A stretch of 64,000 bases of DNA from Marsupella aquatica (taxonomy: Eukaryota > Plantae > Marchantiophyta): contig OZ316893.1 of the NCBI GenBank assembly GCA_973895155.1, forward strand, positions 27,910,210 through 27,974,209, written 5' to 3'. The notes beneath the pieces were generated by a model. That model ran no database searches. It had not been told where the DNA came from and was given only the letters and a program-made list of their open reading frames with translations. This document shows positions 14,586-59,100 of this stretch, in pieces. The translations under genes were made by a program, and so were the position numbers. How positions within the stretch are numbered: the first letter of the stretch is position 1; every line of letters starts with the position of its first letter.

Positions 14586-14785
14586 GTTGGATTTGGATAG
14601 TCTCAATCCAAATACTAGTATTGGATTGAGATGGTCCAAATCCAAGAGGGTGGTTTGGATTTGGGCCATCCGAATCCAAGAGTCAGGTTTGGATTCGGAC
14701 CATCCAAGTCCTATATAGCCGTGTTTGGATTTGGACCATCCAAATCCAGGAGGGTGGTTTGGATTCGGATCATCCAAATCCAAGA
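14586..14785. repeat. Array of short palindromic repeats (TTGGATTTGGACCATCCAAATCCAA-like)
   Basis: About 6 degenerate copies; resembles DNA-transposon sub-terminal repeats. Confidence 0.7.
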
Positions 14786-25614: not shown

Positions 25615-26229
25615 ATGTCAACTTTCGACAAGCGATCTCTGGAGTTCAACATCGTGTCTGCCAATGACCTGAAGAAGGTGAAGAGCTTCGGCAAGCAGAG
25701 CTGTTTTGTTGTGGTCTATGTTAACCCTTCTCAAAAAATGTCCACTAAGGTAGACCGAGTAGGTGGCAGGAACCCGTGTTGGAACTCCAAGCTGATTGTC
25801 ACATGCGACGAGCAGATGTTCATCAAGTCCGGTTCATACATCACCGTGGAGATATACTGCTCAGGGCGTATCACCAACAAACTCGTGGGCACTGTCTCTA
25901 TTCCCTTGCATGAAGTTGGCAGAGATGGAAAGTCCGGTGCCACCAAGCCCCAGGTCATGGCGTACCAAGTGCAGAGGCGTTCAGGAAAGATTCAGGGGGT
26001 GCTCAATATGGCTGTGAAACTCGGGGAGAAGAGAACCGTTTCGACTTTGCCTGCCCCTCGTGTTTATGGTAAGCAGCAGGCCAGAAGCGGTTCAGGTCTT
26101 CCGACTTTCCCTCACTACTCTCAGCAATCTTATGGATCTCAGCAGCAGTACTACGCCTATGGTAGTCTTCAGCCGCACAGCTACGGAGGCCATCAGCAAG
26201 CCATGTGGCGGTCTACTCCTCAGTTTTGA
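25615..26229 (+). CDS. C2-domain protein, SRC2/BAP-like, with Q/Y/G-rich tail
   Basis: LEFNIVSANDLKKV…STKVDRVGGRNPCWN…ITVEIY…KLVGTVSIPL…YQVQRRSGKIQGVLNMAVKLG is a plant SRC2-type C2 domain; 204 aa, intact. Confidence 0.85.
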   Translation: MSTFDKRSLEFNIVSANDLKKVKSFGKQSCFVVVYVNPSQKMSTKVDRVGGRNPCWNSKLIVTCDEQMFIKSGSYITVEIYCSGRITNKLVGTVSIPLHEVGRDGKSGATKPQVMAYQVQRRSGKIQGVLNMAVKLGEKRTVSTLPAPRVYGKQQARSGSGLPTFPHYSQQSYGSQQQYYAYGSLQPHSYGGHQQAMWRSTPQF

Positions 26230-33368: not shown

Positions 33369-34748
33369 TCTCTCTCTCAATACATGAAGATAGAATATGC
33401 CAAGATGTTCAAAACAAAAGATTAGAGCAAGTACAGATAGGCCAGAGAGTACAGTAGAGACGTTACGCAAAATATGTAAAACATAGTAATGTTTACACCT
33501 TATATATGTAATATTAAAGTCCTGTAAAAATATCCCTATTAAACACGTACGCTGCACCAGCACCCTTTGATCACATCAAGTACAATAGGGTACTCCAACT
33601 CTCGTAAGCTCATACTTCACTAGCGGCTACCCTAAACTCTGGACATCCGCTACTTAAGACTCCCCCACACAAACAAATTTTCATCCACACATTTACGCAT
33701 GAGCACATTTTTTGAGTAAGTTCCTAGCTCCTCTGTTCCTAGATCCTCTGTTCACAGCACGACTAGCACTTCTCGCACGACATTTTTAGGACCACTGAGA
33801 ACGGCCACAGCAGCACTACATCACAGCCTGACACACACACGGAAATCGCCCTGCAGCAACAACAAACTCAGCATGGCTCGTACCAATCAGGTATACACTC
33901 ATAAAACATCCATCTTTTTCAATGAATTTTTTCCTCGTTTTTTGCTAGCCTAGTATCGGTTCATGTCTCCCCGTTACCGCCGCGGCTAGAGGTAGCAGAA
34001 ACATGGAACAGGGATTGAATGCAAATAACTTTTAATCCCGCCCCGGGGACGGGGGCTGAAAGACGACCCTGGGGTTTGTGATGCAGAATATGTCTACTGT
34101 ATTCCGATGCTAGTTGAGGGTCCACATCAGGCAGATTGACTTGCTGCTATGATGAACTGCGTAGAATGTCCGGCTTCAAGAATGAAGAGGATCGCCTTAA
34201 CTTTTTTTGTATGCTTCTAACCGTGGCCCCTAATACTGACTATCGACTGTCGGCAGTTAGCATTCCAGAAGGTTTCTTTTCTGAGATTACAGCGACACGA
34301 TTCCGGCACATCTAACTTCCGATAAACTTAGATTTATTGTAGAATGGTTAAATACTGACTTTACGTTGACCATTGCCTAACGTATGAACAATAGTTATTA
34401 ATGGCAGAACTTCATCATTCTATTCTACTCACGACTCTGTTTAGAAAGATCGCGCACGACCTGACCACTTGCCTGGATTACATAACGCTTTTCTGTCAAT
34501 TTCTACTTACGATCTTGTTTAAATATTTCTGGTCTAAATCATTTGGTACGCATGAATAAATTCTTGATTAAGTGTCTATCTATGGTACACCTCGATAACA
34601 TGAATGACTTGGTATGTGGAGTATTAATAGAGACATGACTGGTTACCAAGACTCTATGCTGTGATGACTTTGCCTATGTGTGGTGATTTAGTACAGACTT
34701 GACAGTGGCCTTGACTGGGTGTTTTTTCTATGAAAATTATCTCTCTCT
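33369..34748 (+). repeat. Upstream pseudo-LTR (~1.37 kb direct repeat) of Penelope-like element
   Basis: Nearly identical (scattered substitutions and small indels) to ~39047-40424. Both ends fall in TC tracts; there is no TG...CA and no PBS. Confidence 0.9.
33950..34113 (+). ncRNA. Structured RNA motif, copy B (candidate ribozyme)
   Basis: Stems: CTAGTATCGG/CCGATGCTAG (closing), GTTCATGT/ACATGGAAC, GTTACC/GGTAGC, GGGATTGAA/TTTAATCCC, CCCCGGGG/CCCTGGGG (loop ACGGGGGCTGAAAGACGA), GAATA/TATTC. Pseudoknot TCCCCG/CGGGGG. Confidence 0.75.
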
Positions 34749-36673: not shown

Positions 36674-38842
36674 TTGTTTGTGTGTTCAGATGATCGGCAG
36701 CTCGTTCAACTTCCACACGGTCGCTTCTCTATTTCCCGGAATCCTGACCATACCGGCATACGATTCATACATCTCTTATACACTAGTAGAGCTTTTGAAT
36801 GGCTACCGCTACGCCTAATCTTTACACAATGCCTGTCACAAATTAATGCATCTGATTCCATTCCCGCGCTAGATTCTATTTGTTTTAGTTGGAGATATAC
36901 TCCCCCGATTTCCACACTGTGCTATCACCCAACCCAAGTCTTCTGCGATTTTGAGTGTATGAACCTTGCTTCTGATCAGACGACATGTTGCTGTCAGACT
37001 AATCGGTTAAAAAAATTCCTTGATCCACTTACACGAAATGAGCACCAACTTCCATCCACCAAATATAACATCCATGTGCGCACCACTGACTTAGGGCTCA
37101 TCCATGACAAGCATCTCAGATCTGCACTTTCCTCTAGACTCAATCACATCATACCACAGGCTACTACTTTTAACGATGCATTCCAGGAAATTGTAAGAGC
37201 TTGGGATAACGTGTGCAACATTTTACAACTATCTGAGATTCTTATCAACTTCGGCACTGAGGCCCTTCACAACATCTGTCACACCTTGTGGTCAACCGGT
37301 AAGCAACGCAATATTGGAAGACATCAACGACACTTACAAGGACAACTATCTACAACGGCCATCTCCAAATACGATATCTCCTCGAGCATCTATATTTTTC
37401 CGGCCTTGATAAGGCTGCTAACAACGTTTGCATCATGTGCATCCACCATATTCGAATACAGGCCCTACATCGACTACAAGGCGAAGACTTCACTCTCGAC
37501 TCACGACTACTCAAAGATGTAGTCAATACGTGCCAAGCACAAATTGAGGAGCTCATCCCCGAAATCGTATTTTGGTATGCTGGTCTTCCGTTCCTTATGG
37601 CGTCATACAAGTTGCACAAACACAAATATCGGTGGATTACCAATGCTGCTTCATGCATTTTTTCAGGACTTACTCGTATCATCACAATGATCCTTGGCCA
37701 AATTTCCATCGAACTCAAAGCCTGGGCATTCAAACAGTCTGAATATCTACGTACTTTCTTTCGAGTAGAGACCACATTTTTTTGGGTTATTGATTCTTTA
37801 TATGAGTTTACGTTGAATCTACCACCCAACATACACTATTTGTATGTTGCGGACATCACTAGATGCTACGAAACCATTCCACTGTCTGGTGACGATAATC
37901 TGCCCGATGCCATTAGCCATGTTGCCAAAATTGCCTTTTCACACCACAACTCCTCTCGACGAAGGCAAGAGAAACTTTGGATAAACATCGACTTGACCAC
38001 GGGTCTTGCCAAAGAAGCTCGTTGGGCATGCCGTATGCCTGGGACATCATGCTGGATTGAATTTTCATTGGAGCGCTTCATACGACTGCAGACATGGCTA
38101 ATACAACACTATTACATTCGACTTGGAGATCAAACTTGGCGACAGTCTACTGGCATTCCCATGGGATTTTCGTGCTCCCCACAATGGTGCAACCTTTACT
38201 TTGTTTCATACAAAATCAGATTCGTCCAAAGGTTAGCTCGACTAAAACAACATACACTACTCAATGACTTTCATTTCACGTACCGGTACATTGACAATTT
38301 CTGCATCCTTAACAATCACAACATAAGTCAATTCTTGGACACGTCAGCACCACGTACACCGGATAATCCATATTGGATATATCCTCTACACATTGTCTCT
38401 ATGCAACCAGAAATTGATACTCACAAGCCTGGACATCCCACTATCGGCACGTCTGGACATTTTCTCAATGTCCATATTGACATACTGAACCAACATAGCG
38501 GCTTCTTTGAAACCACCCAATTTGACAAACGTCACTCCCTTCCATTCCCTTTTCAGCAATACATCCAATTTCGGTCTAATCGACCTGTGAGACAGTCCTA
38601 CAATATTGTCCTTCTCACAGGTGGTCCCTATTTTGCATATGGCTAGTAACGCTGACCTGGCCTTTTGTGAAATTCGTATTGTTGTCAACACTCTAGTAAA
38701 CAATGGCTTTTTTCAGTCCCGCCTAGATCGAATAAGCTTTAAATTTTGTACAACCAAATCCTTCTCGGGAATACGCTTCCCACTAGATAACCTTATTACG
38801 CTTTTACTTGAACACATGAACTGGCGCGCTGTCCACATGTAA
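36674..38842 (+). pseudogene. Penelope-like (Naiad/Chlamys-type) reverse transcriptase, frameshifted, no endonuclease seen
   Basis: Linker CCCQ…FLDP…HVRTTDL…LRSALS, then LDKAANNVCIMC, YVADITRCYETIP, QSTGIPMGFSCSPQWCNLY, YRYIDN (normally YIDD), GHFLNVHI, FDKR and a thumb ending VNNGF. Frameshifts lie near 37360 and 38612. Confidence 0.85.
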
Positions 38843-39026: not shown

Positions 39027-39059
<33 letters not shown>

Positions 39060-40424
39060 ACATGAAGATAGAATATGCCAAGATGTTCAAAACAAAAGAT
39101 TAGAGCAAGTACAGATAGGCCAGAGAGTACAGTAGACGTTGTGCAAAATATGTAAAACATAGTAATGTTTACACCTTATATATGTAATATTAAAGTCCTG
39201 TAAAAATATCCCTATTAAACACGTACGCTGCACCAGCACCCTTCGATCACATCAAGTACAATAGGGTACTCCAACTCTCGTAAGCTCATACTTCACTAGC
39301 GGCTACCCTAAACTCTGGACATCCTCTACTTAAGACTCCCCCACACAAACAAATTTTCATCCACACATTTACGCATGAGCACATTTTTTGAGTAAGTTCC
39401 TAGCTCCTCTGTTCCTAGATCCTCTGTTCACAGCACGACTAGCACTTCTCGCACGACGTTTTTAGGACCACTGAGAACGGCCACAGCAGCACTACATCAC
39501 AGCCTGACACACACACGGAAATCGCCCTGCAGCAACAACAAACTCAGCATGGCTCGTACCAATCAGGTATACACTCATAAAACATCCATCTTTTTCAATG
39601 AATTTTTTTCCTCGTTTTTTGCTAGCCTAGTATCGGTTCATGTCTCCCCGTTACCGCCGCGGCTAGAGGTAGCAGAAACATGGAACAGGGATTGAATGCA
39701 AATAACTTTTAATCTCGCCCCGGGGACGGGGGCTGAAAGACGACCCTGGGGTTTGTGATGCAGAATATGTCTACTGTATTCCGATGCTAGTTGAGGGTCC
39801 ACATCAGGCAGATTGACTTGCTGCTATGATGAACTGCGTAGAATGTCCGGCTTCAAGAATGAAGAGGATCGCCTTAACTTTTTTTGTATGCTTCTACCCG
39901 TGGCCCCTAATACTGACTATCGACTGTCGGCAGTTAGCATTCCAGAAGGTTTCTTTTCTAAGATTACAGCGACACGATTCCGGCACATCTAACTTCCGAT
40001 AAACTTAGATTTATTGTAGAACGGTTAAATACTGACTTTACGTTGACCATTGCCTAACGTATGAACAATAGTTATTAATGGCAGAACTTCATCATTCTAT
40101 TCTACTCACGACTCTATTTAGAAAGATCGCGCACGACCTGACCACTTGCCTGGATTACATAACGCTTTTCTGTCAATTTCTACTTACGGTCTTGTTTAAA
40201 TATTTCTGGTCTAAATCATTTGGTACGCATGAATAAATTCTTGATTAAGTGTCTATCTATGGTACACCTCGATAACATGAATGACTTGGTATGTGGAGTA
40301 TTAATAGAGACATGACTGGTTACCAAGACTCTACGCTGTGATGACTTTGCCTATGTGTGGTGACTTAGTACAGACTTGACACTGGCCTTGACTGGGTGTT
40401 TTTCTATGAAAATGATCTCACTCT
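39027..40424 (+). repeat. (TC)15 plus downstream pseudo-LTR copy
   Basis: Direct repeat of 33369-34748; ends at ATGAAAATGA|TCTCACTCTC, where the host ORF resumes. Confidence 0.9.
39627..39790 (+). ncRNA. Structured RNA motif, copy C
   Basis: Same as copy B; the C>T change in AATCTC keeps pairing as G-U. Confidence 0.75.
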
Positions 40425-43400
40425 CCCCGTAGTCTATGGCTGGTATGACCCCTAACAGTCTCCACTCCAGGGGAGAGGTCAGAAGAAGACCGACCCTGTG
40501 TACCTAAACTGCCGTAATGCCCACAGTCTACTAGGGCCTCCTCCTGCATATCAGGCTCCTCCCCTCCATGATCTGCCTCCTCATCCTCCGTGATGGGCCA
40601 TGCCACTAACCCCTCCAAAGGAATCCAATCCTCTTGCACATGACATAAGATTTCAGTGTACCTCGTGCAAATAGTGGATGCAAAACCTAGCATAGCAAGA
40701 ACCTAACCTGACTATGTAACTTACCACTGGGTGGTCCTCCGGGACAGAGTTCAGCTTAGCCCATAGGGCCGCCGGGCCATAGCATTTTGAATAGAGCCGC
40801 TCCTGCTCACTTGGCTCGGCGTTGGCTCCAAACTTGCGTTTCTGCAGGAAATTGAAGAACGTCGTCACCACCATCGTTAGTTACAAAGTTCCAAACAACG
40901 TTTTTGACTTAACGTTGTTCAAATCAAGGTTTATGGTTTAGCTGCCATATTAACGACGCAAGAACAACGTTAATTAAATGTAATGTCATGAGAGACGTCA
41001 TAAGGTAGGAAGAACGTAGGATGGGGAGACGTAAATTGGATAATGTACGATGTTAGAGGAGAAAAACAATGTTAATTCTTGGTTCTCACCGCAATGGCCG
41101 AAGCATGAACAAGCTGTGCTTTGAAGAGGGTGGGGGACTTACATAGGTTGCGAGGAAGCCTCGCCATCCTCCCTGGCCCCAGAAGTTGGTCACACACAGG
41201 TGGCCATTTGATTTGCGGGCTGTAGTAGCTTTGTCCCCCATGTGCACTCGCTTGCCTACTAAGGTGTCAGGTGCTGCTTCCAACTCAGCCACGATCAACT
41301 TGAAGTCGGCCTCACTCATTCCTTCTGGTTTCAGGTATTGCTCTGTCCTTGGGCATCTCATTTTTTGAACCTTGTTTCTCCATCTAAACCTCTGATCTGC
41401 AAGGTAGCCTACAATCTTTTGTTTGATGTGCCTGTAGTCTATTTCACGGCCATTCCTAAACCCAGCCTGCACATCATTCAGGAGGAGCTGAAACTTCTTT
41501 GGATTCTGTGCGAGATCCTTCCAAGTTGTCCAACCAGGACAGTGCTTAGCACAACACGTCTGCACTCGATTTGTGAGGGCCTTCTCATCCACAACATCCG
41601 GCCTAGCATCAAACACGTCCAAGGTGATGGTTGGGAGTTTATCTCGACTCACAATAGTAGTTACAAGAGAAGGTCGTCGCTTCTTGTGGGAGTGACGTTC
41701 ATGCTGAGGTGAGTACCTCTCTCTTCTGTTTGCCCTTGCATCTCCCTCTGTTCTTCTTCTTTTGTAGCTGCTTCTACTATGTGTATTTGCATCTCTATGC
41801 TCCTTCCCTTTCCCCTCCCGTCTTCTCATCAAGGCTGCTATTGCTACTGTGTGGTCTATCATGATGCCTCCTCTGCTTGCAAGAGTCCCGATCCTGATCA
41901 GGCTAGAATCTGTCATGTGCTACCCTGACCATGCTCTTGATTGGGGTCCCACTAGGTGCCTGAGAATCAGGCTACATTCCATTGAAGGCAGGATCGTCCC
42001 ACCCATCATCTGGTAGGGATGGGAAGGAGTTGAGAGCATCAATCGAAGGCCCCCCAACCTCCCCCAAGAGTGTTGCATCTTCAGTTTCCACAAGGGTATT
42101 TACAAACGACAAGAACCAGGAAACAGTAACAGTAAACAGTTACTGTTACCAGGAGAAATGAAAAAAAAATGTGATTGAGCTCCATTATTTGGTCAAGAAG
42201 TTTAAAAAACACCATCAATAAACCCCATTTTCAATCGTTTTCAATACCACCATCCAATTGTGAAGGAAAGTAGGGGCCATTAGAACAAAGGTGTTGCCGA
42301 AAACCTAAGATTACCAGCGCCCAACGCTAGTATGCCGGCAGGAAAGCCAAAATTTTGGTATTCCTAAAATAATGAAAATGATGGAGATTGGAGATTCTAC
42401 GTAACGTCAATCGAGAAGAGAACAGGGAACTTAACGGCCATTAGAAAAAGGAGTTTCCAAATTTTGTGGATATTAGCAGCGCCCAGCGCTAGTATGCTGG
42501 AAGATATTGTCTGTCATATCAATTGAGAAGTGAACATAGGAAACTCAATTTGAAGCATTTCCAACAAAGAGAGGCCACGGCAGACGTTGAATATTTTCAG
42601 CGATGGGCGCTACATTAAATGTCAGACTTCAAGAAATCAATGTTAGCGCCTAAACATGGAACAATGAACATAAACAGCGCTCGGCGCTAGCTCAAATCTA
42701 GGAATCAATGAATGACCATGAAAGAACAAGAGAGCCGATCCAAAACTGCATTCCTTACTTCCAAAATTGGTCAAAACATATAACCGGTATTACACCATCC
42801 GCAGATCATCTTCAAATCAACCTGCAGCATAACATGAACATAAGCAGCGCTCGGCGCTAGCTTAAATCTAGCTTAAATGTAAACTAAAACTGGACCTTCT
42901 GTCACTGAAAGCACCCACAGCCCGAGCACTATAATCCTAGCGATTTCCAGTAGTCGTCAAAGCCCGTCGAAGCCCGCCCTGGCCTGTATGTGCTTTTTCT
43001 TGAGCTGAGCCGCACATAATAGGGCCGCTGATCCAAAATGGGCCTAAACATGTAGCCGAAAATACATGAACTTTGAATCAACCATAGGAGAAATCCCACG
43101 GTCCAAGACGAACAAAAGCAGCGCTTGGCGCTAGCTTAAATGGGAAGCCTATGGCCACTGAAGCTTGTGTCACTATAACCACCTCCGTCGTGAACAACTT
43201 TAGCTCTAAGATTGGCAGTCGTCGTCGATGCCCGCCGTGGCTTGTCTGTGGTTTTGCTTGAAACCTAGACCCCTGAGCCGCACATAAGAAGACGAGGGGC
43301 ACCGAAACTCCGCATTCTGATTCCCGAGGTCTAGAACATTTGTATCAAGGAAGTCAACACATCCCAGTCGCTCTTGTACTCGTCGCTGAATAGGCTGAAA

Positions 43401-44044
43401 ACCAATCAGGAACTGCGAGCGGAGTGTCCCGGTCGTCAATCCAAGGTAAGTTCCTCTCCCCGGGACTAATCGCCTCATCATACGGAAGCGCAAAAAAATT
43501 CTGGAAGGTTGAGGTCTCGCTGGAAGTGTCACCATGAACGGACTCGAAGGAGCTGAAGTGACTCTCGTCCGGTCGAACTCTAGAAGGAGCGAGAATGCAA
43601 GCATCTCCTCCAAAGACATGATCTCCTTCTTCTCCATCTAGTGGGCACTGTTAAACAAAATCTAGGCTAAAGACAAGACCGGTGTTGTTGAAATGACCCA
43701 ACTTCGAGAGAGGTTGTGTCTGAAATAACTTGCGAGAGTGACCTAATGGAGAGTTTAGGTTCGGAGATCAGCAAAAATGTATCACAGAAAGGTTCAACGC
43801 AAAAAGGACCATTGAGAAAGAGACGACTATTTTTGGTAACGACAACATATGCGGGGCCAAGGAACGGACGAAGGATTCAAAATTTGCAATTAGAAAAATA
43901 GACGTTTGAGGAGCGCCCGACGCTAGTAAGGGAAATGAGTAATTTGATACATTTTGTTTTCAATGTAACATAAACAAATCATATATGGGATAATAAATAC
44001 ATGTATTATGATAACAGCACCCGACACTGGCAAAATCAAACGCT

Positions 44045-47000
44045 TCAAGAATCGGACGATTCCGATTCAGAGCTCTGTGACCTCTCAATAGAGACCGCCT
44101 CATCATCTACATACTTGCTCCTACAAACGTCGTCTACATAAGGATTTCGGACAAATTTTCTATCAACTCCTCTTCGTAGCCGGAGACCTTTGTTTTCCCA
44201 ACAAAGAGTCCTCTGATTATCTTCCATTCTTGCAGCATTTTCAGCATAAGAGGGTAAAACAAATGGTTTCTCCGAAGTGACAATTTCAAAACGAGCTACT
44301 TTTCTTCTGAGTTTGAAGCGTCTTCTCGTATTCCATTCGGACCTAGGTGAGAATAGAAGTTCGTCAACCGATTGTATGAATGGATAGCACAAAAGCATGA
44401 AGGAACTGGAAAGGAGAAAGAAGCTTATGAGTTTCAGAACATTACTCGGAAGAGTCATCGCTGTCACTCTGGCCAACGGATTGTTCCCGACCCTTCCCCT
44501 CAGGTGTGCCATCCTCATCCTCGTCTGCTGTACCACCACTTGACTCGTCGTCAGAGTCAAAATTAAGTACAGAACGGAGCTTGTCTCTCCTTTTCTTTTT
44601 GGGTGGTTGAATTGGGGGTGGCAAAGTTTCGACTTCCTTTGGAGAAAGTATATCTAAGAACACCTTGGAACCAGTTTCAATGAAATCTTTCCTATTCTCC
44701 ACTCCAATTACAAACCTCCCAGAATAGTCTCCAGCTACAAAAGAGCTACCTGACCCCACTGTCCAATCCATGAAAATATCCCTAGGATGAGTGATGAGCT
44801 CAATGATAGATTGCATGAATCCAACCGACAAACGGGCATTTCCAGCAAATTCCATCTCAGGTGTTGGATCCACTTTGAGAGAGGGAAGTCCAATTAAATT
44901 CGTTATGGAGGGATTTTCCGTGGCAAACAGAGGTCTAAACCTCGAGTCTTTTGGCACCTTCCCTTTTTCAGACACTCGACAGAAGACGTCAAGCCTAAGC
45001 ATGAAGATTGTAGCAAGGTGATAAAGAGATAAATGACTATTTACTCCTTAATAACTCGATTTCATTCCCGTTAGGAGTGGATAAGATCGAAAAGACTGAA
45101 TTAACACAATTTGAAAAGTTTACACCAACATTCTTAGGTTGGAGAGATTTCTAATGATCTCCTTAACATAAGTGTTTAACCACAAACTCAAGTGGGTAAT
45201 CCTTAGGATTAACAAAGATTGAAACTAGAGAGAGTAGGTAGGAGGTTTCAAAGCGCAAGGAAATTGAATTCCGACCATCACCACTCCTTCAATAAGGATT
45301 ATGGCCTAATTTAAGATTCGGAAATCAACATTGTATATGCTTTTTGATTTCTCATAGCAACTCTTCTCCATCTCTTGAATTTAGAAGACAACAATGTAAA
45401 TCAACCCGGGACACTTTTCTGGTCTTGCTTAAGACGGTACTAGGATACTCGAATTGGTTTACTTCTCCTACTATCCTTAAGATTGTTTATTTGAGTTTCA
45501 CGTAAATTCCAATTTCTCTTTGGTGGATCTTCTATATGAATTGGTCACAGACCTTGCTGATCTTCCAATATCATCATAGGCACACGCTAGTATTCATTGA
45601 ATATTGCACAACAACTCAAAGGGTTGCTAATCTTGAAACTTCTCTTTACTTAACCATGGTAAAAAGAAGGGAAGAAAAGACATAGATTTCTCCAAAATCA
45701 AAATGGGGAAATCAAATGCATCTCTCTCTCCCAGGGTTAACTTTGGGTTCTCCTCCTTTTGTACTAAAAGTGGAGATTATGAAAAGACATGCCTCTTCAA
45801 AACCCAAGTCTAAAGAAATATGTAAATAAAAGTGAACTATCCTAGACAAAAATGGAGTAGAGTCTCCAATGGATACACCAACAAAATACTGGAGTCTGCT
45901 TACTCATATACTAGTCTATATAGCTATTTCTAAGTCTAAACCAATGTGGCTCTAACTCTCTAAATATAACTCTATTCTGGTCCTAGCTTTTGGGAAGGAA
46001 CCTCCTCAGGGTTAGCCATGGCAAGGGGTTATAGTCGAAGGAAAACTCCCTGCTGGCCAGTGGTAAAAGGGATGGACGGGTCAATATCCATGTTCTCCTG
46101 ATGGGCACTTGGGTCATGAGAATAAGTGTAAGAATGGGAGTGGAAGTGTGTACTGGGAGTGGGGAAACCAGGAGGGTTGAGGGGTGATGAGGGGCCAGTG
46201 GAAAAGACTCCTTCATGAGGACTAGGAGAGAAAGATCTGGTAGTAAAGGCAGGAATCTCAGTATCAGCTAATAGCTCCTCTGTAATCAAGTCACTCATCT
46301 CCCTTAAGGCTTTACAGGTCTTTGAGAGACCCGTAAGTGCATCATCTACTCTGGCACTCACATCTACCACTAAACCCGGGTATGCAACTCCCCTTTTTAT
46401 AAATCAAGTTTTTAATTCCTTATAATGACCCTATATCCTTAGACCATCTTAGATTTCATTTTAGTTTACTAAAGTCTTGTACCTCTCAACTTAAGGAATC
46501 CAAAAATGTAACTTAAAAAAAATTCTGAATATGTTTTGATGTATAAAAAGTTGATCAAAACCAAATTATATGACTTTTTTTTAATACAGGGGTCTACAGC
46601 CAAACTAGCCAGCTTTTTAGGATTTTTATTAAAATTTTAAAAATCTTTTAATAAAAACTACAACATGTATAGGAATATTTTTTAATTTCATATGGAAAAA
46701 GAGGAGAACCAAACCTTTTATATGACTTGAAATTTTTTAAAAGTGGAAAACCCAGGTTTTTTCAAATTTTAATAATTTTGTATAGCCAACTTTTTAGTCC
46801 ATATAAAAATGTAGACCCCTGCCAATTATACAAGAGTTGCGTACCCGGGCCACTAAATGGTTAATCTTGGAGAAAAGGATGGGTGTGGTGTTCTTGGCCA
46901 AATACTCATAATAAATTTGGGCCTTAAGAAGATCCAGAGAAGCTATCTTAGTCAAAGGCTCAATCAGATCCAAAGATTGAGTGATACTGAGTTGGAGAGT

Positions 47001-50000
47001 ATGCTCAAGCTCATTCTTCTTCTTACTCCTTTCCAACTGTTGTTTGAGTTCAGATATCTTCTTCTTGAGGAACTCATTCTCCTTCTCCAACTTCCTCTTA
47101 TCTGTGGCATCACTCATGGTGGAGATCTTTTCAAGAATCTGCCCTGGTTTCCCTCCTAACTTCTGAGAAATGTCAGTGATGGCCTTCTCCATCACAGTGG
47201 TCTTCCTCTTCACCTTCTGGAATGTATTTGAGATGATCTAGAAATCAGCTAGGGTGTCTAGGGAGGCATGGCCGGGTGCATCCGGAAATTCAGCCGGGTC
47301 GACGAAGGCCGGGTCGGCAAAGTCTGGGTCGAGGTTCCGGGCAGCAGACCGGGTTTTTTGAGGATTTGTCTCTGCTGGTTCCTCATCCTCACTGTCATCA
47401 GAGGTGGCCTGGGTGATATCTGGATCTGCCTCTCCATACTTTATGAAGTTGAACTTGGCCAATAGTAATTTATTCTCCTCTCTGAACAAAACTCCTTCAA
47501 AGCTATATAGATGTACCAGGTAGCAGGAGAGGGGAGTAGGACTCTTATTGGACAGGTTCTGTACCAACTTCCTTATCAAATCAAAGATAAGCTTAGCCTA
47601 GTTGACTTTTCTTTCTCCCTTGTAAGCAGCAACAATGGTAGAGCCAACTCCAACAGTAACTCTTCGTGGCTTCTCTGGATATAGTAGGGGTAGCAGGAAG
47701 CTGAAGACTCGTTTCAAATCAGGATCCAAACACTTAGAAACATTGAACCCGTCCTTATTGTTGATGGCTCCTTTGAAGTAAGGAAGGATTAGATTGACAA
47801 CTCTCCCCACTGGACCTTCTCCTTCATCTTCCAATACAAAAGCTCCTGCAACCATCATCTGAGTCCATCGCTCAGGTCGGCCTCCGAAGGTATCCTTAAA
47901 CTCAGCCGGACACTCCTTGGATCGGATCTCTCTGATCATATCTTCGCTCTGATAACTCCAGGGTAGCTCCATTAGAGACTCACAGCCCATCATGAGCAAA
48001 GACTCCCTCAATTTGACCTTCTCAGCTTCACTGTCCGGAATAGCTGGCCTCAGAATTTTCATGGCAATGGGGACCTCCTTTCTCTTTGATCGTCTCACAG
48101 GAGCTTTAACTGGAGTAGGTGCAGGTGATGTTGAGGTTGAATGCCCCTTAAGAAACGCGAGAAGTGGACATTCCGGCTGGATCCGCCCCTTGCTCCATAG
48201 GATTTCTGGAAGTAGCAAATTGATTTTTGGTAAATGTTCTACCTCCTCTATGGCGAGCTCTACAATGATGCGGCTTCAGAATGTTCAATCTCTTCGGTGT
48301 TGACCACTGGTAGAAATGTCCGGGTTGACCTGGCCGCAGCGTTTTTGATCAACTGACGAGCTTTTTTGAAGAAGTGTATCAAGATTCCGTCAACCAAAAT
48401 ACAGGTGCATCTAACTTGGGGAAAAGCTAGACTCAATCGGGCCTGCAACGGTGATGTCCGGGTCGACCTGGCCTCCCTTCTCACAACCGATGTATCCACA
48501 ATCAAGATCTTAAACTTCCTACCTTCACTTCCAGCGGTGGAGTAGGCATTCCTCTCACAACGAATTAGTCAGTACCCTCATATCCAGGCTCTCATCATGT
48601 AATGCAAGATTGGTCCTATAATCCGGACCCAAGATCCTCTACCAAAAGGGTAGAGCCTCCTCACTCTACTGCTTAAACAGCCTAATGCGCTCGGGAGCTC
48701 AAAACCTACTAAGTTCGGCTTTGAGAGGTGTGAGGTGTGAGAGGCCGGATCGACTCTCCTTCCTTATATTCGGATTCTGCTTTGGTCGTGCCTGTGTTTG
48801 ACTTATGGTTTTAAAAACTTTGGCAATGGACAGCTGTTGTTCAGTAGAGTCGCGTTGTAAGCTTTTATATCTCATCACGGCTTATAGTAAAAAGTTCCGA
48901 GTCGATCATCCTTCTCTAATATCAATCCGGGTTGACCTCTGATGGGCTTGAAAGTCTCATACCACTTCAAAGTAGTCTTCAAGTCCCTCTTCAGCCTCAT
49001 TTGAGATCTTAAACGTAAAAATTCTAAAATTTATGGTTAGTTAACCCTTCTTTCATAAACATCCTTATCTCACAAAGATTTGTAATATAACCCAAGAAAG
49101 GTATGTCAATGGATGTATTCATAAACATTTTTTGAACCGCAAACCAGATGTCACGATGATAAATTTACCTGTCGGTCAGTCTTCGGCGCATACATTGGAA
49201 CTGACATGACAACATTGTGTGACGAGATGCAATGAAATTTCTTCGAATCCTGACAGGCCGATATAACCTAAGACATTGGATCGTACTCCCCGTTATGTAA
49301 AATGGCCAGCATTCCGTCATCAGATAAAAATGGATCCATTCCACGAAAGAAAGAGGTGGCCAAAGTGTGGTCAGGGACATTCCATTTCGGAACTTTTCTG
49401 TCTAGCAGAGATGGTTTAAGTCCAGTCGGAAGGTAAATAAAACCCGCGTGGACTCCAAATGATCTCTCCTTTCCACCACGCACAATGCCCTTCTCTCGGA
49501 AGCCAGACTTCATGAGATCCTTTCCCCATTTCTCTACACCATTCACCCAGTCAGGCTTCTCCCCTTTGTTAAACGTTGAGTCGTAGAATTCTGAGATGCT
49601 AGATTCAACAAGGCAATGCCTTGAAAGTCTACTCTTGAAGTCCCCGACTTTGCGTTGAAGACCTACAGCAGCAGCACTTTCTCGAGAGGAAGATCCACCT
49701 TCAATGGTCCTTTTTCTCTTCTTCCTTGTACTGGTCGCATCCACTGGAGCAATCGCCTTCCCTTTGTCGGCAGGAGTAATTGGATTGGATGGTGCTCCAG
49801 TATTGGCTTCAAAAGCCTTTGGGGTGGCATCTATCTTTGTATCTCCGCTCCCCATGGCGTCTGACTTTCTCCCTGTTCAAATGGATGCCGAGGTGATATC
49901 CGTTAATATTGATACAACGACAATGCTAACGCCCAACGCTGGCCAAACTATCTGTAATACTAGGCCATAAATATACACTTTTGGACTAAAAATACCAACT

Positions 50001-52365
50001 CAGTTTCTGAAATATTGACTCTCATATCAGCTACGGGCGCTAACAATGAAATAGATCTTCACTGCCATAGCAGCGCCGGGCGCTAACCAAGGAAACCAAT
50101 TATACTTACATTTTTTCCAGATCTTGTTGATTCACTTGGGGCCGTAGTATCTGCTTTTGCTTTGGCGCAAGGCTTCCTGCTTTGGTCAACATGAACAATT
50201 GTTGTCTTGCATATTGTTTGCAATCGTGTTGTGGATTGATCCACATCGTCCGGAAGCCCCTGATTCATGTCAGAAACAATGTTGACTGGGATCTGGGACT
50301 TAGACAGCTTATGGAAAGCATCCTTTTCTCTGTGATCAAAGGGCGAGTCCCATCTATCTGTATCTAGGTACCATGGACAATGGGTTCTCTCCCATTCACT
50401 TAAAGGTCTTGCTGGGAAAATTCCCTTGACAGGATACATAGAATACAATTCAGCTAAAGAATCACTCTCCGGTACTACAGTCCACTTGAGGAAGGCGGCG
50501 GGATACGCCCAGAAGTAATCAGGTTTTGTAGCTTCCATGTGGATGTAAAAATGGTAGAGGTACCATTTTGCTCGCTTCTGGTTCTTCAAAGAGTAATCCT
50601 CTTTGTCAGGATACTTCGAGGGCCACATTGTATTAAAAAACTTACCCTTGACAGAGTCACCGTATTTCCTAAAATCATTCGTGTCTATGTCAATGAGAGA
50701 TTCGAATGATTCACATGCCCAATCTTGTAAACGATTCACGGGAATGGTTTGTTGGACCTCTCGCAGAGCACATTGCAACATCCCCACCGCAATCCCTTCT
50801 ACATTATTCCATGTAATCCAAGTGTGACACCACTGTTTTACTGGATCATCATTGACGCTATTCGGATGGAAGAATTGTCTCCAGAGCTCCGGATTGCAAT
50901 GTGCTACAAGCAAAGTACTTTGTAGCTTGGCGTCAAGAGCCAAAACAGCTGTAAAAAGCCTAGCCCGGTCCATGGTACACAATACGGTATCTGGCTTCTT
51001 CTCCCGCTTATTCCTCTCCGTGACAGCATACATTTCTGCGCACATAGACAGAAAGTCCTCAAACTCTGGACTCAACAAAGGAGTGATTTTTGAGGTCTTC
51101 ACTGCCCATTCCTTGGTTGCTTCCTTCATCATAACGGCATGCCTTCTGGAAACCTCCTCGACCGACCAAGGGGAACCGAGGGCCGCAGCGGACTCCATGT
51201 CAATCTTGAACTGGTTCAAATACGACTTAATCTTATCCTGACATAGAATGTACACAAGGGCCTCCTGAGGCATCTTCTTTGTGTACCAGGATCCTTTTCA
51301 CATCTTCATCCTGATCTGCTCAAACTTCTTGTAATTTGCAGGGTCGATGAGCTTACTATAGTACTCCAGGTCATGCATCAAGATCCGCTTAATTCGATCG
51401 GCATCTAGGATCCAGGAGGGTTCCACAACGGCTTGTCCAAGCCTGAAATGCAAGAATGAAATGAGAAGAACATATAAGCAACGTCGGGCGCTCGTAAAAC
51501 ATAGCCTCGGAAAGTTATGCTAGAAAGAATGAACAATTCACAATGACTCACGAAGTTATGCACAAAAGAGTATCTTACTGATTAACGGTATGCATAGCCA
51601 CTTCGATTTCTATCAGCGAACCCTTGTCGCCATTGAAAATAGTACAAAGTACACGCGGGTGGTACTTTGGGTTTCGGGACTCTCCTGAGTGACAAGAGTC
51701 CACGAATAAAGCCTATGGTTCCCGTCAAAAACTGAGAACATTTTGTCCTTCAAAACCAGAAAATCTGGGTCGGCAGCACATTCTTCCTCGAATTTCTCAT
51801 TCTCAGATGTCCATATTGGATCCCAACTCTCACGAATTTCTTGAGTACAGGTGAGAAGCACTCCCTCAGCATCGGTAGGCTGAACGTAAAACCTCATTCC
51901 AATCGAAGAATTGTATCCCATGCTAAGGAAGCAATCTTTGAGCTTGTCGATGGAAGAACTATCTTTCTGTAGAGTTTGGACAACCTCCATATGCACCAAT
52001 CGACATAGTGGAATTCGTGGAGGCTCTTTGTCAAACCCTCTGAAATCCTTCCCAAATGACATGACATGTTTTGAAATAAGATCCGTCTCAGAAAACTAAA
52101 CATCTTGAATCGCAAATGTGTCAAGATTCTCCATCTTCTTTCTCGCTGGCTTGGCAAATGAAATACCAGAGATTGGAACAAGCGATGCGGTGGACCTCAT
52201 TACTCGACGCGTATACACCGAACCAGAGAATGAAGACTCAGAAGACTCACAATATCCATGATCCTGATCCCCAACCACACTATACCCCCTCGACAAGGAG
52301 CGGATTGCATCCATCGTCTTTACGATGAAAGGTGTACGAACAGAATTCTCACGACTGATTACCAA
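44045..52365 (-). pseudogene. Multi-exon gene: ParB/Srx-like N-terminal domain plus C-terminal beta-class N6A/N4C DNA methyltransferase-like domain; split by the 45019-49072 insertion
   Basis: IPLCRLV…IDKLKDCF…VFDGNHRLYSW (ParB-type DGNHR, ~51712-51726); a large middle exon (~51440-50110); FIYLPTG…KWN…FLSDDGMLAIL (degenerate motifs IV-VI); THPRDIFMDWTVGSGSSFVAGDYSGRFVIGVE (motifs X-I-II, ~44700-44790). Several stops and frameshifts. Confidence 0.7.
45019..49072 (-). mobile_element. 4.05-kb solo-LTR-like unit (TG...CA, TSD CAAGG/CAAAG) with internal ORF
   Basis: TGATAAAG…CTTATCTCA; the flanks differ by one base. Removing it restores the host frame (…PKTDRQ, ~87-nt intron, IFATIFMLRLDV). The internal minus-strand ORF 48218-46794 (PLLYPEKPRRVTV…, coiled coil) has stops. 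Confidence 0.7.
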
Positions 52366-53241
52366 TTCTCCGTACTATATTAACAGTTGCGGCCGTATTA
52401 TATCCGATCAATGAGTGCTATTCCCCTCTTTGTAATCGGTTGGAGAGACGTTACTCATTGCGAACGACGAGATTCAATTTTATTTATCCGTGACAGAAAG
52501 CCGACAATTTAGAAATTGCGATAAGTATTAATGTGAATTACGCTAAAATGTTGTCGTGATCATCACGCTAAATATTAGTTACTGTTAAATGTTACCGTTG
52601 TCTCAACACCTTTCAGACAGAATGCAATGCCAGCGTCGGGCGCTAACGAAGAAGTGACTACCAAATTCAAACACTTATTGGTGAACAAATGCTAGCGCCC
52701 GGCGCTAGCCATTTGAATAATTTGATTAACGTTCTATTTTAGTACCAGATATTATCAACAAACTTCCAAATGTACTCGTTTCACCCGTAACTAAACTTTA
52801 CTTGATATTATGGTATTAAGTATATTGTATCAATACTAGCGCCTGGCGCTAGTAACGATTTACTATTTTTGAGCTTTATTTGATCTTGTGATGCAATATT
52901 TTGAAGAAAAAACATTGATATTTCGTGTATGATTATGCTAGCGCTAGGCGCTAGTCACAAGACTTTTCAAAATAAGTCATTGTTTTTTCCAATGATTTTT
53001 AGGTAGCGCCCGACGCTAATGAAATGGATGCACTTGTATAGGCTATTATCTAGTCATATTCATGTAATAAATATTCCTGACACCCGCACTTTCCGGGAAA
53101 AAAGGACAAATGTCTCATTTATGATTTCAACGGACGCAAAGTTGTGCGTGTTCTCTGTCGTATTGGAACGTCTCTTTTAATGGCCGGTGGTCCTTGAAGG
53201 GGTGGTATAAGCAACCAATACGGTCGGGATTGGGTTAGTGC

Positions 53242-54850
53242 ATGAATTTCCTTTGGCCTAAACTTCATTCATCTACAATGTCGCGCTCAATTGTTATTAC
53301 ACGTGCTTGTACCGGGGACGTCGTCAAGGTTCCTGTGCAAGTTTCTGATACTTACAAGCAAGTAAGCAAGACCTACCTGTGCGGGAGATTCGATTTGAGA
53401 ATCAATGACATTGAGTCGATTGTTCTTGAGGAGTCATTGAGTGGAGGACTTGAACCAGCTGCGGCATTTGATGTGGATGACGGAATACGTTTCTGGCACA
53501 TGAATGTAGGACTTCGTTACACGCTTCATGTCAGACCTACTCCTCTTCAATCGGTTGTTCAGGACATTCCGCCCCAGGTTGTTGAAATATCTGAGAGTGA
53601 AGATGAGGAAGTTGCGCCCAATCCTCCTGAGAAGCACAAAGTTCCAGGCTCGAGTTGCCTTAAGAGTGAACCGGTGGCCACTTCCGGAGGTGTCCAGAAG
53701 GTTTACCGGCGGAGTGCAATGGACGCCCTACTCAAGGCCATGGGCCATAGTGAACTGTCAAGATTTATCTCGGTAGGGGACTTCCGACACGATCAAGTTC
53801 CTTGTTTGCCAAACAAGTACAAAGGAAATGTTGTATTTGAATTGCCTCCCATTGTGGGAATGCAGTCCAAAGGATCTAGACTTCGTGACATGGACCGTGC
53901 CAAAGATTGTTACATTTGGACCAGGGATTTTCCAATGACCGCAAACGTGCAACCAAAGAAACACTGGGAGTTTGGTAAAGTCACTTGTACTAGGTTCGTC
54001 GAGTGCGGAAACAAGTCCTGTGAATATTTTTGGCAAAAGAAGAGATGCAATCAAAAGCGTGGGCTGGTACCCCTAAGCTTAGTGGCCAGCATGTGGTGGG
54101 TTCGTTCATTGAAGAGGGTGGTATAGTATGTCACTACTGTGAACAGATTCCTTTCTATGTGGACTCTTGCCCTGCTCGCTTGTTCTATATGTATCCACAG
54201 GTTCTACTTGATACAGAAACCTGTAGACACATGTCTCGGCTCGCAGTTCATATAGGTGAACATAACCATCCGAGTAGAAAAGTTTTCTCGAGGAGCGCTG
54301 AAAAGATGGCCAAGGACTTAATAAAAAGAAATCACGAAGCCAATCCTCTTGCAAAGCCGGCTGGGATTTTGAATTCGACGACTGGTTCGCTTGTGAAAGC
54401 TCTTTGCGAGAACATTGACGACATCGTAGATATTGAAGAAACAGAAATTTGGAAGTCTCTCATGGTTCTCTCTTCTCCTCAGAAATTTGCATCCCTTTGT
54501 CGTAGCGTTTGAATGGACCAAGCTGGTCGTGGTGAGTTAGATTTCCTAGCTTGAATGCAAAGGTCAAATAATATTTCTTTCCTCCAAAGGTATCTTCTGT
54601 CGGGTCAGGGTTGTTTAGCAGATCCGCCCCACATATTCAAAATGTCAGTCAAGGGTCATGGATCTGGTGTAGATCTTCTACGGCAGATGCAACCTAGCGA
54701 AAGACTGGAAGGGGCTTGGGTGAGTTTTGATGTCATGAAGCGAGTGACAACCGACTTTTAGCGCACACGTTTAGCGCACACGTTTACGATCACAACTTTC
54801 GAGCTCTTTGTACAATATTCACATGCGAACTAAAAGCTGAGGATGTAGTT
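53242..54850 (+). pseudogene. Mutator-like (MULE) transposase, degenerate, truncated by LTR insertion
   Basis: A WRKY/GCM1-type zinc finger (CGNKSC…CHYC…CPARLF…HIGEHNHP) is followed by AWVSFDVMKRV…AHVYDHNFRALCTIFTCELKAED, resembling the start of the MULE DDE domain. Frameshift and stops are present. Confidence 0.6.
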
Positions 54851-55759
54851 TGTTATGAAGAACCAAAAACACACTTAAAGGTCCTCAAACTCGGTATTCA
54901 TTCCCGTAAAGAACAAGATGGGGTTGATTTGATACATAAAAACACAAATGAGAGTTTAAGAACTCTCTTTAACACATAGTAATCAGGATTGATTACTTTA
55001 CTAAGGTATTTTGAAGATCGCTCGACAGCGGTGAGTGGTTTTTAATGACAACTCAGCATCATGTAACCATAAATTAATGAAAAGGAAATGATTAACAAAA
55101 CACAAGGAAAAATATCTCAAAGTATGCTAAGGGAGTCTGGAATAGACCAAGGTTACTCCTTAGACATAAGTTAAAATGAAAAGACTTAAGGATTCAAATC
55201 CATATTGCTTTTCAGATCTAAATTGCTTACTAGAGTACTCTTTTAAAATGCCGTCAACATGTCTTATCCTTTCTTTCTAAATGGTACTCAGATAAGATCT
55301 AAAAGGTAGCTACTTCAACATTTAGGTGGTACTAAGCAACATGAAAGAAAATCCATCACTTTCAAATAAGACTTAAACTCAGTGAGTTAACTCTAAGAAC
55401 TCAGGAGATTGTAATGAGTCACCAAAGAGGAATTTGTCATCAGATCTCATAAGATTTACACAATTGGAATTTTACTTCCCATGATTTATTCAAAGGATTA
55501 AACCACAAGAAGGAGGAAAGTCTTCTCCTGGTGTCAAGCTTGATCTCGAACTCTTAACATTCATGATCAACTGGCAGAACACCAAGGAAAGGCAAAAATT
55601 GCTAAACTTTACCATCATCTACACTAGTGGTAGAGGGGTCTTATAGTAAAAATCTACTGAGTGAGAGGTCACAGGGTCGAAGAGACATGCCTCTTCATAC
55701 CCCTCAAAATTTTAAAATGGCGATTCAGTAAGTGAAAAGCCGGAAAAATGGCTAAGTAT

Positions 55760-56161: not shown

Positions 56162-59100
56162 TGTGATGCCTAGACAGGAATCACTCGGCCGGTTAAGTGG
56201 GTAAAGCAAGAAGGCACCCTAGGAACACCTTAGTATAGTGACAAAACAAGGAAAATATAAACAATTAGGGGCAACCATGGAACCCGGGCAGAGGCCGGAG
56301 GTAAGGCTAAGGGTGAAAACCCGATTAGGGTTAGGGCGCGTTAAGCGTCGGCGGCTAGGAAGGATCAACGGGAAGAAGGACCGGCAGAGGAGAGGGGTAA
56401 GGAGCGCTTGCAGGAGATGGTGGCTCATTTGTGAGCACGAACTAGGCAGACGACTACGGGAGGCCAACTACTGTCAGCTGCTTAGGCAAGCACTCGGGGA
56501 GAGAGTAGATACCGACGATCGACCTAAGGAGGGTATGAGCAACGTCAATCAAGCGGCACATTTCTGGGGATGCCTGTTCGAACGGGCAACTGAGTACATC
56601 AAGACTTACGAGGACGAGGAATCAGAAAGGGCAGCTCGAGAACGGCAGGAGCTCGCTCGATTGTGGGAGCTGCAAAAGACGGCTTTCTTAGGAGGCGAAC
56701 TCATCAAGGACGAGTTCCTGTGGACGCCTACTTCCAATCAACTCGACGATCTTCTGTTTTGCAAAGACAGCGTCGTCGGCATCCGAGAGGCCATCAAGAA
56801 CTGCAACGACATACACTGGGAATTAAAGGGTAGCACGGAAAGGTGGACCCAGGCAACGGTGCTAGGAGAAACCTCCACGGCAGCAGAGATGAAGAGGAAG
56901 GGAGCCGTCAACGATGAAGCCACCCCGGCAAAAAGAACAAGGTCGGCGGCACCAAAGAAGCCAGCCGAGCAGCAGAGCAGGAGGCAGGGAGAAGCCGAAG
57001 AGGAGGAGGTCGATCCCATCAAGGCCATTCCAACCAGGGATGACACCTGGAAGGGCTGGGCGGCAACCCTACCGGTGGAGGTGCAACTACATTTTGCACG
57101 GGAGGAGGATGCATGCTTTACGGCCATGCAGACCAAGAAGTACCAAGGCTTCATGGCCGGATCCGGCTTGGAGGCCTTTGTAAGATTACCATGGCTGAAG
57201 CCGGAGGTACCGGAGTCAGACCTATTAGAATTCGTGGGGTCATGGGAACCCGAGACCAATTGCACGAGGATATATGGGAAGGATTTCTATCTTACTCCCA
57301 AGGTAATTGCCGAAGTGTTTGGCCTGCCGATAGGCAATAAGACCAAAGTTGATACCAGGAAGACCTTGCCTGACAAGGAGTTCCGGTCGTTCCCCGGGCC
57401 ATCAACGAAGAATGGCTTCTTCCGGAACACCTGCACCAACCCGCACATAGGAGAGATGATCGACTTCTTGCGGGTGACCATGCATTGTAACTTGCCGAGG
57501 GCAGAGATCGGCAAGGCACAGGTCTATCTGGCAGAAAGGCCAGACCCAAGCCGGGACTACAACGGGTACCTCCTCAACCAATTGAAGAAGATCTTAAAGG
57601 AGGAGCAGCAGGTAATCGGCATGGGGAGCGTGTCGCGGCTTGGCTATCACATGCCGCTGTTGTGCCGGTATGCCAGAGGTCAGACTTTTGCCCCGGTACT
57701 TCCCCTGCAGGTAAGGGCACCTGAGGAAGCTCCAACGCCGAGGCCGTTGGCTGAGAAGCCTCAACCACCTGTTAGTCCTACGATCGAGCAGGTGTTTAGG
57801 CCCAGGAAGGAAGACTTGCCGATGCAGCAACCAGGCATGCAGAGTCTGCTGAAACTACTGGAGAAAGAAAGGAAATCGGCATCGGCAACAACAACGGCAA
57901 CGGCAACAATGCAGGACACTACTACAGAGGTAGGCCTACACCGGCTCACAAGAGAAAACCCCTTTGCTGGAGACAAGGAGAGAATCAGGCCGGAATCCAA
58001 GCCAGGTGTTCGAATGTACGTGGGAACCTCAAGCTCCGAATCTGAGGCAGAATTGCCTGAAGCTCCTACCGACGAAGAGGAGAGGGAGAAGCCGGACGTC
58101 CAAGAGGTAGAGGAGGCAGTGGAGGACTGCAGCCATGATAATTCCGGCTATGGGTCGGACCATCACGTTCCAGGAGTAAGGACCTGTGGCCGGTTTGTCC
58201 CCACACTTCCAAGGGTAGTGCAAGGGGACCCCAACCAGCAGAGTAGCCCTGAGTCTCCCCCACCAGATGTTGCTCCCCCGAGCTTCGACGGCATAAAACA
58301 GACGGTGCAGGAATTTCAGGAGCGAATCAAGCAGGAGGAAGAGGCCGCCCTGGCTAAGGAAAAGGATTTACCAGGAGGAGATTGGCCGGAGGACATCAGG
58401 TGGCTAGCCGAAAAAGGAAGCAAACCTCTAGCCACGATTGAAGAGATCCGCAGGACGGCTTGGGAGCAGAGGCCACGATGGGCGATGCCGATCACTTCTA
58501 CTTACTCCACCTACGCTAAGAATAGAGCCATGGAGTATGGTGAGATGTGTGGGGAACTTGCGCTCGGCATCTTTGGAGAGGAGTTGGAGGTAGGACCCTT
58601 TTTCCATAGGGAGCAGTTGGAGAAGCACCAATTAGAAGAAGTGGTGGCTTTAGAGAGAAGCAAGAAGGACGAGGTCATTCGGCGGCTTAGGAGGATGGAA
58701 GCCAAGATTGAAGATCTAAGGGCGGCCAAGAAAGCCCAAGATGAACTGCGGATTAAACGACATGAGCTGAACATCATGCAGGGGCAGTTGGACACCGCGC
58801 AGGCTGATAATCAGAATATCAAGGATAAACTGACTCAGACGCAGGAAGAGTTGGCCGACACGATCAAAGAGAGGGAGAAGTGGAAGCAAGAGCTGAAGAA
58901 TACAGAGGAGGCCCACATAACAGCCAACAGCCGGGCCATGGCGGAGACCCAAAGAAAGGAATGGGCGTTGAAAGGGGAGCTCGAGAAAATCCGCGGAGCC
59001 CTTGAGCAGAAGGAGGTCGAGTTAGGGAAATCCTATCAAGGGATTATGGCGCTGCAGCAGGAGCTTGCGTCCCTGACGGCCAGCTTCAAGGCCGACCTAA

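Follow-up and report, generated by a model that had tools for sequence, protein, structure and literature searches.

Palindromes around the ParB-like gene of a liverwort Mutator-type transposon as candidate binding sites for the element's own protein

Within a 64,000-nucleotide (64 kb) stretch of the genome of the liverwort Marsupella aquatica (contig OZ316893.1, positions 27,910,210 to 27,974,209 of the forward strand), referred to here as the window and numbered from its first letter, there is a decayed, multi-copy transposon that is classed as Mutator-type from its relatives, and in which a gene for a ParB-like protein lies head-to-head with the transposase gene. The short palindromes dispersed around the ParB-like gene are predicted to be family-specific candidate sites at which the ParB-like protein of the same element would bind, and this is the reading that is considered probable here. 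An earlier examination of the letters alone (the sequence-only reading) had proposed cognate sites for an element-encoded protein. That proposal gains from the observations that the palindromes are element-specific in the window, non-coding, constrained in their arms and concordant with the clades of the protein, but the gene in this particular copy is broken.

Contigs from four runs (two studies) are found in each of the 30 bins into which 40800-55200 was divided. They include many variants, pass directly from 45003 to 49075 and so lack a nested insertion, and depart from the window sequence at one stop and one frameshift. The variants, the skipped insertion and the stop and frameshift differences indicate that the family is multi-copy and that the copy in the window is decayed.

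The invariant word is AGCG-N5-CGCT (consensus AGCGCC-S-GGCGCT), with 13 exact copies in the 64 kb, all between 42316 and 53017; the same two arms at other spacer lengths (0 to 12) have 0 to 2 copies each. This word replaces the 17-mer of the sequence-only reading, which had counted about 14 dispersed 17-bp palindromes. With up to two mismatches the 17-mer occurs at three places in the window, and with up to three at 13 sites, 12 of them within 42314-53019, whereas 100 dinucleotide shuffles have a mean of 0.1 such sites and a maximum of 2. The cluster itself is thus far above the shuffled background, but most of the sites are imperfect as 17-bp palindromes, since the left flanking base is C in 10 of 16. 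The exact word is absent from the rest of the window, approximately 55 kb beyond the element. At up to five mismatches there are 16 sites in the element and 24 in the window, against a chance expectation of 8.1, and given this background about one of the three sites with five mismatches may be due to chance. When the arms of the 16 sites are folded together, the successive bases are A (32/32), G (30), C (32), G (31), C (24) and C (24), and the centre base is C or G in 13 of the 16. Among viral contigs, 85 stretches have the 15-base word (at up to three mismatches one site in 79 and two in 6), but none is homologous to the window; these were dismissed as chance, as was the match of L001 to the word. 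No RNA source of the sequence was listed.

None of the 16 sites overlaps an inferred exon, though exons make up 64% of the element. Five are located in the divergent intergenic stretch between the two genes (52630..53019, with starts at 52630, 52692, 52836, 52938 and 53003), including the three best copies, and these are the same five that had previously been assigned to the divergent promoter. The introns contain four sites where three had been listed: one decayed palindrome (51478..51494) in the intron that follows the ParB exon (51443-51578, with GT-AG ends placed by homology), and three (49926..50086, starts at 49926, 50027 and 50070) in the one that precedes the methylase exon (49873-50109), of which the site at 49926 is the addition. 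The cluster 3' of the ParB-methylase gene is also real, but has seven members (42314..43926) and not six, of which five belong to two groups that arose by local duplication. The nested multi-copy insertion (45019..49072), which is skipped in contigs of two runs, contains no palindrome, in agreement with the sequence-only reading.

The flanks of the copies had been described as different, and this is only partly so. The sites at 42674, 42844 and 43118 have 32-38 bases in common, those at 42314 and 42476 are alike over approximately 70 bases at 77%, and those at 50027 and 50070 resemble each other. With seven of the 16 sites sharing the flanks of a neighbour, there are about 12 independent groups, and the cluster has partly grown by local duplication. 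Tandem Repeats Finder detects no array over the palindrome sites, and the spacings within the clusters range from 43 to 274 bases with no common period by eye. The shared flanks, together with joints in the run contigs that skip or repeat units, could be taken to mean that the palindromes are neutral relics of local tandem duplications, as a palindrome inside a tandem unit is copied along with it. This explanation is highly improbable, because a single word is common to four separate regions with unrelated flanks, because the arms outlast the flanks and the centre, and because in three related loci (L120, L148 and L150) the same word occurs both in dispersed upstream sites and in a 51-base intron array.

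Related elements were collected in a metagenome scan with the ParB domain, which gave 139 confirmed stretches, the best 80 of which were analysed and form 46 clusters; an earlier scan with the central domain as query had given no match. Introns, decay and plant retroelements in these loci suggest that their hosts are probably bryophytes. A methylase match lies 3' of ParB in sixteen clusters, and a divergent transposase is present in six of the 16 clusters whose upstream sequence extends to 6 kb or more. The window word is absent from all 46 clusters. A single palindrome is present three times or more, without mismatch, in 11 of 23 upstream 2-kb segments, as compared to 2 of 52 control tiles and none of 69 shuffles, the clusters behind the first count not being independent, and a repeated palindrome of the cluster's own occupies the same places in 17 of the 26 clusters that have 1.5 kb or more upstream. 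As in the window, an array directly precedes the methylase exon in L120, L143, L148 and L150. The 131 sites in 18 clusters comprise 95 in the 3 kb that precede the ParB exon, a count that is partly circular because the words were derived upstream, and 35 within 3.5 kb downstream, the only ones free of this circularity. The distal DNA of the same clusters (135 kb) contains one site in 70 kb upstream and none in 64 kb downstream.

The words differ between the related elements. Six clusters have CATATG-N8-CATATG, six have AACTTT-N8-AAAGTT, and two, with at least three sites, have TACTTT-N8-AAAGTA; L092 has GGTGCC-N6-GGCACC, L106 has TTCGGCGCCGAA, L134 has GCCGT-N2-ACGGC, and the word of L161 is of the TGAAGAAC type. 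Co-divergence of motif and protein, which the sequence-only reading had suggested as a check, was examined on a FastTree phylogeny of one ParB domain (approximately 167 columns, all 53 rows kept), and the words do follow the ParB clades. Each word is confined to one clade, with seven changes, the minimum for eight classes, over 19 tips, whereas label shuffles on the tree give a mean of 11.2 changes and a minimum of 8. These results also bear on the idea that the palindromes are host-factor sites exploited by the element, to which the clustering around the promoter would be suited. Such an origin seems very unlikely, since sister families from the same contig sets carry different words and the window word has no copy in window DNA outside the element.

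The clade counts exclude some further palindrome arrays whose association with the ParB gene is unclear, namely the ATGG-N9-CCAT arrays of L095 and L138 and a 25-base array in L099, and for the same reason an AGCT-centred word. In one subclade without an upstream word there are palindrome arrays 3' of the ParB exon (L095 12475-13016, L138 10071-11028 and L099 4870-6132). The AGCT-centred word represents a second palindrome class, interleaved with the clade word at a spacing of about 63 bases in more than one clade; it is seen in L110 (9111-9586), L133 and L129, to which a de novo search adds L150, L152 and L162.

The substitution pattern within the window sites separates the arms from the inner bases. 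Transitions affect 0 of 64 arm CpG bases and 14 of 64 inner C/G bases (Fisher p 5.5e-5), and with one site per flank group the figures are 0/48 and 10-11/48 (p 0.0005-0.0012). Several of the clade words also have a GGCGC-like, transition-prone centre by eye. In a 99% identical pair of repeats in the window, transitions are found at 6 of 190 CG, 4 of 224 CHG and 2 of 729 CHH positions, and the fact that the CpG arms are intact although CG is the most mutable context favours a fixed or protected sequence. The arms within single window sites do not co-vary. This pattern appears to fit selection for a fixed sequence, or shielding from methylation, better than it fits a hairpin.

The hairpin explanation, in which the inverted repeats act as a DNA cruciform or RNA hairpin, or owe their symmetry to template switching, with no specific protein involved, draws on the related families. 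Flanks pair above partner-shuffled controls in the CAACTTT, CATATG, GTACTTT and L092 families (p 0.003-0.009), which fits hairpins as well as binding sites and counts to that extent against the latter, and some units are palindromic over approximately 40 bases. This flank-pairing signal is, however, confounded by related copies. In the window, core pairing is 77/96 compared to 80.4 in shuffles, near flanks pair at 41/112 compared to 39.2, and the arms extend over only 4-6 bases around a spacer fixed at 5; a structural origin of the palindromes is accordingly very improbable.

The protein that is predicted to read these sites is encoded by a pseudogene on the minus strand (44045..52314, start codon inferred) with a ParB-like part, a helical part and a beta-class methylase, broken by stops near 52097 and 51299, a frameshift near 51671 and the nested insertion. 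Domain and fold matches place a ParB/Srx-fold domain with a DGNHR motif at 51579..52095 (-), and the corresponding piece carries the atlas label DUF3723/ParB_N (0.91-0.94). The central all-helical region, a 404-residue piece (50110..51442, -), has 87 relatives at E ≤0.001; the ten that were looked up include four from Riccia sorocarpa and two Calypogeia fissa clusters, and Riccia has full-length versions of the protein with the same domain order. Among 27 sequences the D, G and N of the DGNHR motif are invariant, the H is nearly invariant and the R is common. The canonical CTP (cytidine triphosphate)-binding motif of ParB is GxRRxxA, and bacterial ParB has GxRR at the position of DGNHR. The identification of the gene product as a ParB in the sequence-only reading agrees with the predictions, which are of an N-terminal fold of ParB type and of a helical region resembling that of ParB. 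The DGNHR motif does not have the canonical GxRRxxA form.

A model of the Riccia protein P0075, built on 67 sequences including the window pieces and with a predicted local distance difference test score (pLDDT) of approximately 90 in the ParB/Srx fold, has the N-domain of KorB as its top structural match (Z 7.9, root-mean-square deviation (rmsd) 2.6, 95 aligned), followed by PadC (Z 7.2) and pNOB8 ParB (Z 7.0, rmsd 4.2, 223 aligned over both domains, model 156-539). After these three come unrelated helical proteins (Z 6.3) and Spo0J (Z 5.5), and the parS-bound ParB DNA-binding domain 6s6h is matched at Z 5.0 (rmsd 7.2, 138 aligned); in the Riccia model, the first half of the helical region aligns weakly with ParB DNA-binding domains. 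In Foldseek searches with the Riccia model, pNOB8 ParB and Noc rank first, with E above 0.2. Because the P0075 model matches KorB, PadC and pNOB8 ParB, a ParB-like architecture of an N-terminal fold plus a helical region is likely, with middling support from these predictions.

The methylase domain (44445..49872, -) is split by the insertion into a motif IV region (49271-49872) and a motif I region (44445-45018), the latter matching PF01555 at an E of 6.6e-5, below the curated cut-off. The domain has a beta-class fold with motif IV before motif I. In a whole-protein fold search, methylase matches fill the list and there is little on the central region, but a model of the Riccia protein P0102 is confident in the helical centre, and its methylase part is closest to beta-class amino-methylases, with matches to CcrM (E 4.3e-4), M1.HpyAVI, M.BceJIV and MboIIa.

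Several of these results, besides the circularity of the upstream counts, weigh against binding by the element's own ParB-like protein or against parts of that reading. The structural scores are middling, with no Z of 8 and no Foldseek E under 0.001, and profile searches gave no Pfam ParB match and no meaningful PDB sequence match. The catalytic motif of beta-class amino-methylases is (D/N/S)PP(Y/F); motif IV is non-canonical in all relatives seen, 17 Riccia proteins having D-(L/M)-P-(T/S) and several related loci D-(V/I)-P, and in the window it is Y-L-P-T, with Y where Riccia has D, so that methylase activity of the ParB-like protein is doubtful. The CATATG clade (L105, L110, L117, L129, L132 and L133) has no methylase match, and the methylase may have been lost or replaced there while the palindromes stayed. 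In three of these loci (L110, L117 and L132) approximately 10 kb are available downstream, still with no methylase match. A clade word is lacking in 9 of the 26 clusters that have 1.5 kb or more upstream, and a second, more diverged pair of repeats used for calibration has no CpG excess. Related elements also share words by descent, and since word and protein are inherited on one element, clade concordance does not separate the ParB-like protein from the transposase as the reader.

For this last reason, the two genes travelling together, a role of the palindromes as subterminal or regulatory sites to which the Mutator-type transposase binds remains a rival, and one that is held to be unlikely. 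It predicts the same clade concordance, the downstream cluster may lie near the end of the element, and the available text of one source describes the AtMu1 transposase alone as activating its own copies (10.64898/2026.08.24.746577). The distribution of the sites is less suited to it: nine of the 16 lie in the promoter and introns, at a distance of 6-10 kb from the downstream cluster, and in the CAACTTT family the common sequence continues beyond the arrays for 5 kb or more upstream and 7 kb or more downstream with no site. The single site in 135 kb of distal DNA in the 18 clusters points the same way.

ParB-family proteins bind clustered short palindromes of this kind, and a dimer of the ParB-like protein is favoured as the reader because symmetric sites suit a symmetric dimer and crowd around the ParB gene, not in the distal DNA. 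The helical domain of such a dimer would recognise the two arms. Multiple sites at the shared promoter and in the introns would then concentrate the protein on its own family, where the bound protein would probably regulate both divergent genes or protect them against silencing by the host. As the window copy is dead, the sites would have their effect in intact copies, or would be recognised in trans. The least secure parts of this scheme are CTP-gated sliding and a methyl mark made by the fused methylase, both of which are speculation. It is conceivable, but not expected, that bryophyte Mutator elements have captured an entire bacterial clamp, with a ParB fold that would load by a nucleotide switch and slide, a fused amino-methylase that would mark or shield the DNA against host 5-methylcytosine silencing, and a word and protein that would change together in each family as in VANC, but from unrelated parts.

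The gene on the other side of the promoter is the broken first part of a Mutator-type transposase (53278..54850, +), with a zinc-finger-like region and the region of the first catalytic Asp, cut near 54851 by another repeat. This plus-strand gene matches transposases in related loci, and its class is assigned from two of them (L105 and L145), in which DDE-type, CxFH and SWIM-like motifs, which we take to be Mutator signatures, were read by eye. Mutator elements have terminal repeats and a 9-base target duplication; no end-to-end inverted repeat was found in the window, where the right part of the element is cut off. No ParA was found among the 22 window open reading frames (ORFs) scanned, the element being incomplete. 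A word-indexed protein search, which is weak evidence, found no longer relatives of the central ORF or the transposase, and the transposase piece had no match above 0.75 in an atlas search. Within the repeats that interrupt the transposase are coiled-coil-rich ORFs of 967 and 257 residues (56223-59900, +), for which no family match was found.

At the other end, 3' of the palindrome cluster, is an ORF of 277 residues (41086-41919, -) that is multi-copy in the runs, with no Pfam match and no match in the 80 related loci; it resembles CACTA accessory proteins. A contig joint from 42152 to 42668 hints that it may belong to the palindrome element.

Comparable arrangements have been described in algae. 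According to the available text of PMC12477816, the accessory gene of Sola1-1_Ec32 in Ectocarpus encodes a ParB-like protein of approximately 1100-1200 amino acids with an N4C/N6A methylase, on the strand opposite the transposase, for which self-binding and self-modification were proposed. The likeness, by domain layout, lies in the ParB-like N-terminus, the PF01555-type C-terminus and the position opposite the transposase; the former is a Sola element in a brown alga with no sites described in that text, whereas the present element is Mutator-type with a defined word. In the red algae, the available text of 10.1101/2025.02.11.637652 describes PAG3, a ParB-like accessory protein of the Bostrychia Plavaka elements with inverted-repeat arrays beside its gene, proposed self-binding, and homologues in Chondrus Mutator elements. 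PAG3 differs in having a 2-oxoglutarate (2OG)-oxygenase, with the methylase as a separate gene, and the same text contains no clade-by-clade word analysis.

Closer in logic are the VANDAL elements of Arabidopsis, in which, in the available text of PMC5735166, VANC binding and demethylation are proven, and the motifs are short non-palindromic words of 8-9 bases in introns and intergenic DNA that have grown by tandem duplication and differ between families. Both systems combine a Mutator-like element, an accessory gene and family-specific non-coding motifs grown by duplication, but here the motifs are palindromes and the protein has predicted ParB and methylase folds. Homology of the protein to VANC is not supported, as the Pfam and fold tests from which it was judged, without a direct VANC sequence comparison, gave no VANC homology, and Pfam gave only PF01555 and trace matches. 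Bacterial ParB/parS, KorB and Noc (8qa8, 5k5d, 7ol9, 1vz0 and 6s6h) share the predicted N-terminal fold followed by a helical region, and the clustered short palindromes, but the protein of the window differs in its DGNHR motif, large helical insertions, C-terminal methylase and introns, with no ParA seen. The system is therefore VANC-like in logic and ParB-like in its predicted parts, and a member of neither as defined.

MpDN4MT1 of Marchantia, as described in the available text of 10.1101/2021.02.12.428880, is a beta-class amino-methylase encoded by a liverwort host gene, with a TSPPY motif, and shows that N4-methylcytosine (4mC) can be written there. Both are liverwort beta-class amino-methylases, but MpDN4MT1 is a host gene for which that text mentions no ParB, whereas the motif here is non-canonical. 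The element is not described in the available text of that source, PMC4738411 or PMC12973397. The idea of self-binding is already in print for algal transposons (2025), and the clade-wise switch of words is the addition made here. Neither a land-plant Mutator case nor such a switch was found in the literature searched; the work of Iyer from 2011, reportedly cited for similar proteins in green algae, may cover land plants.

The remainder of the window contains other repeats. Two direct repeats of approximately 1.4 kb (33369-34748 and 39047-40424), 99% identical, surround a reverse-transcriptase ORF (37303-38646), begin at a TC microsatellite and have no plain TG..CA ends that were seen. A long inverted pair (15600-16773 and 18510-19662), approximately 80% complementary, surrounds 1.7 kb of other DNA, and an array of 34-base units with internal palindromes of the GGATT-N11-AATCC type lies at 14585-14786, outside the palindrome element. 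An ORF with a C2 domain (25609-26229, +; PF00168, E 9e-14) is possibly a piece of a host gene among the repeats.

The analysis yields candidate sites, each named, in eight word classes that are set against a protein tree and accompanied by annotated full-length proteins from Riccia sorocarpa. If the proposed reading is true, plant transposons would have a second, independent way of recognising themselves by sequence, and a CTP-switched clamp might be at work in a eukaryotic nucleus.

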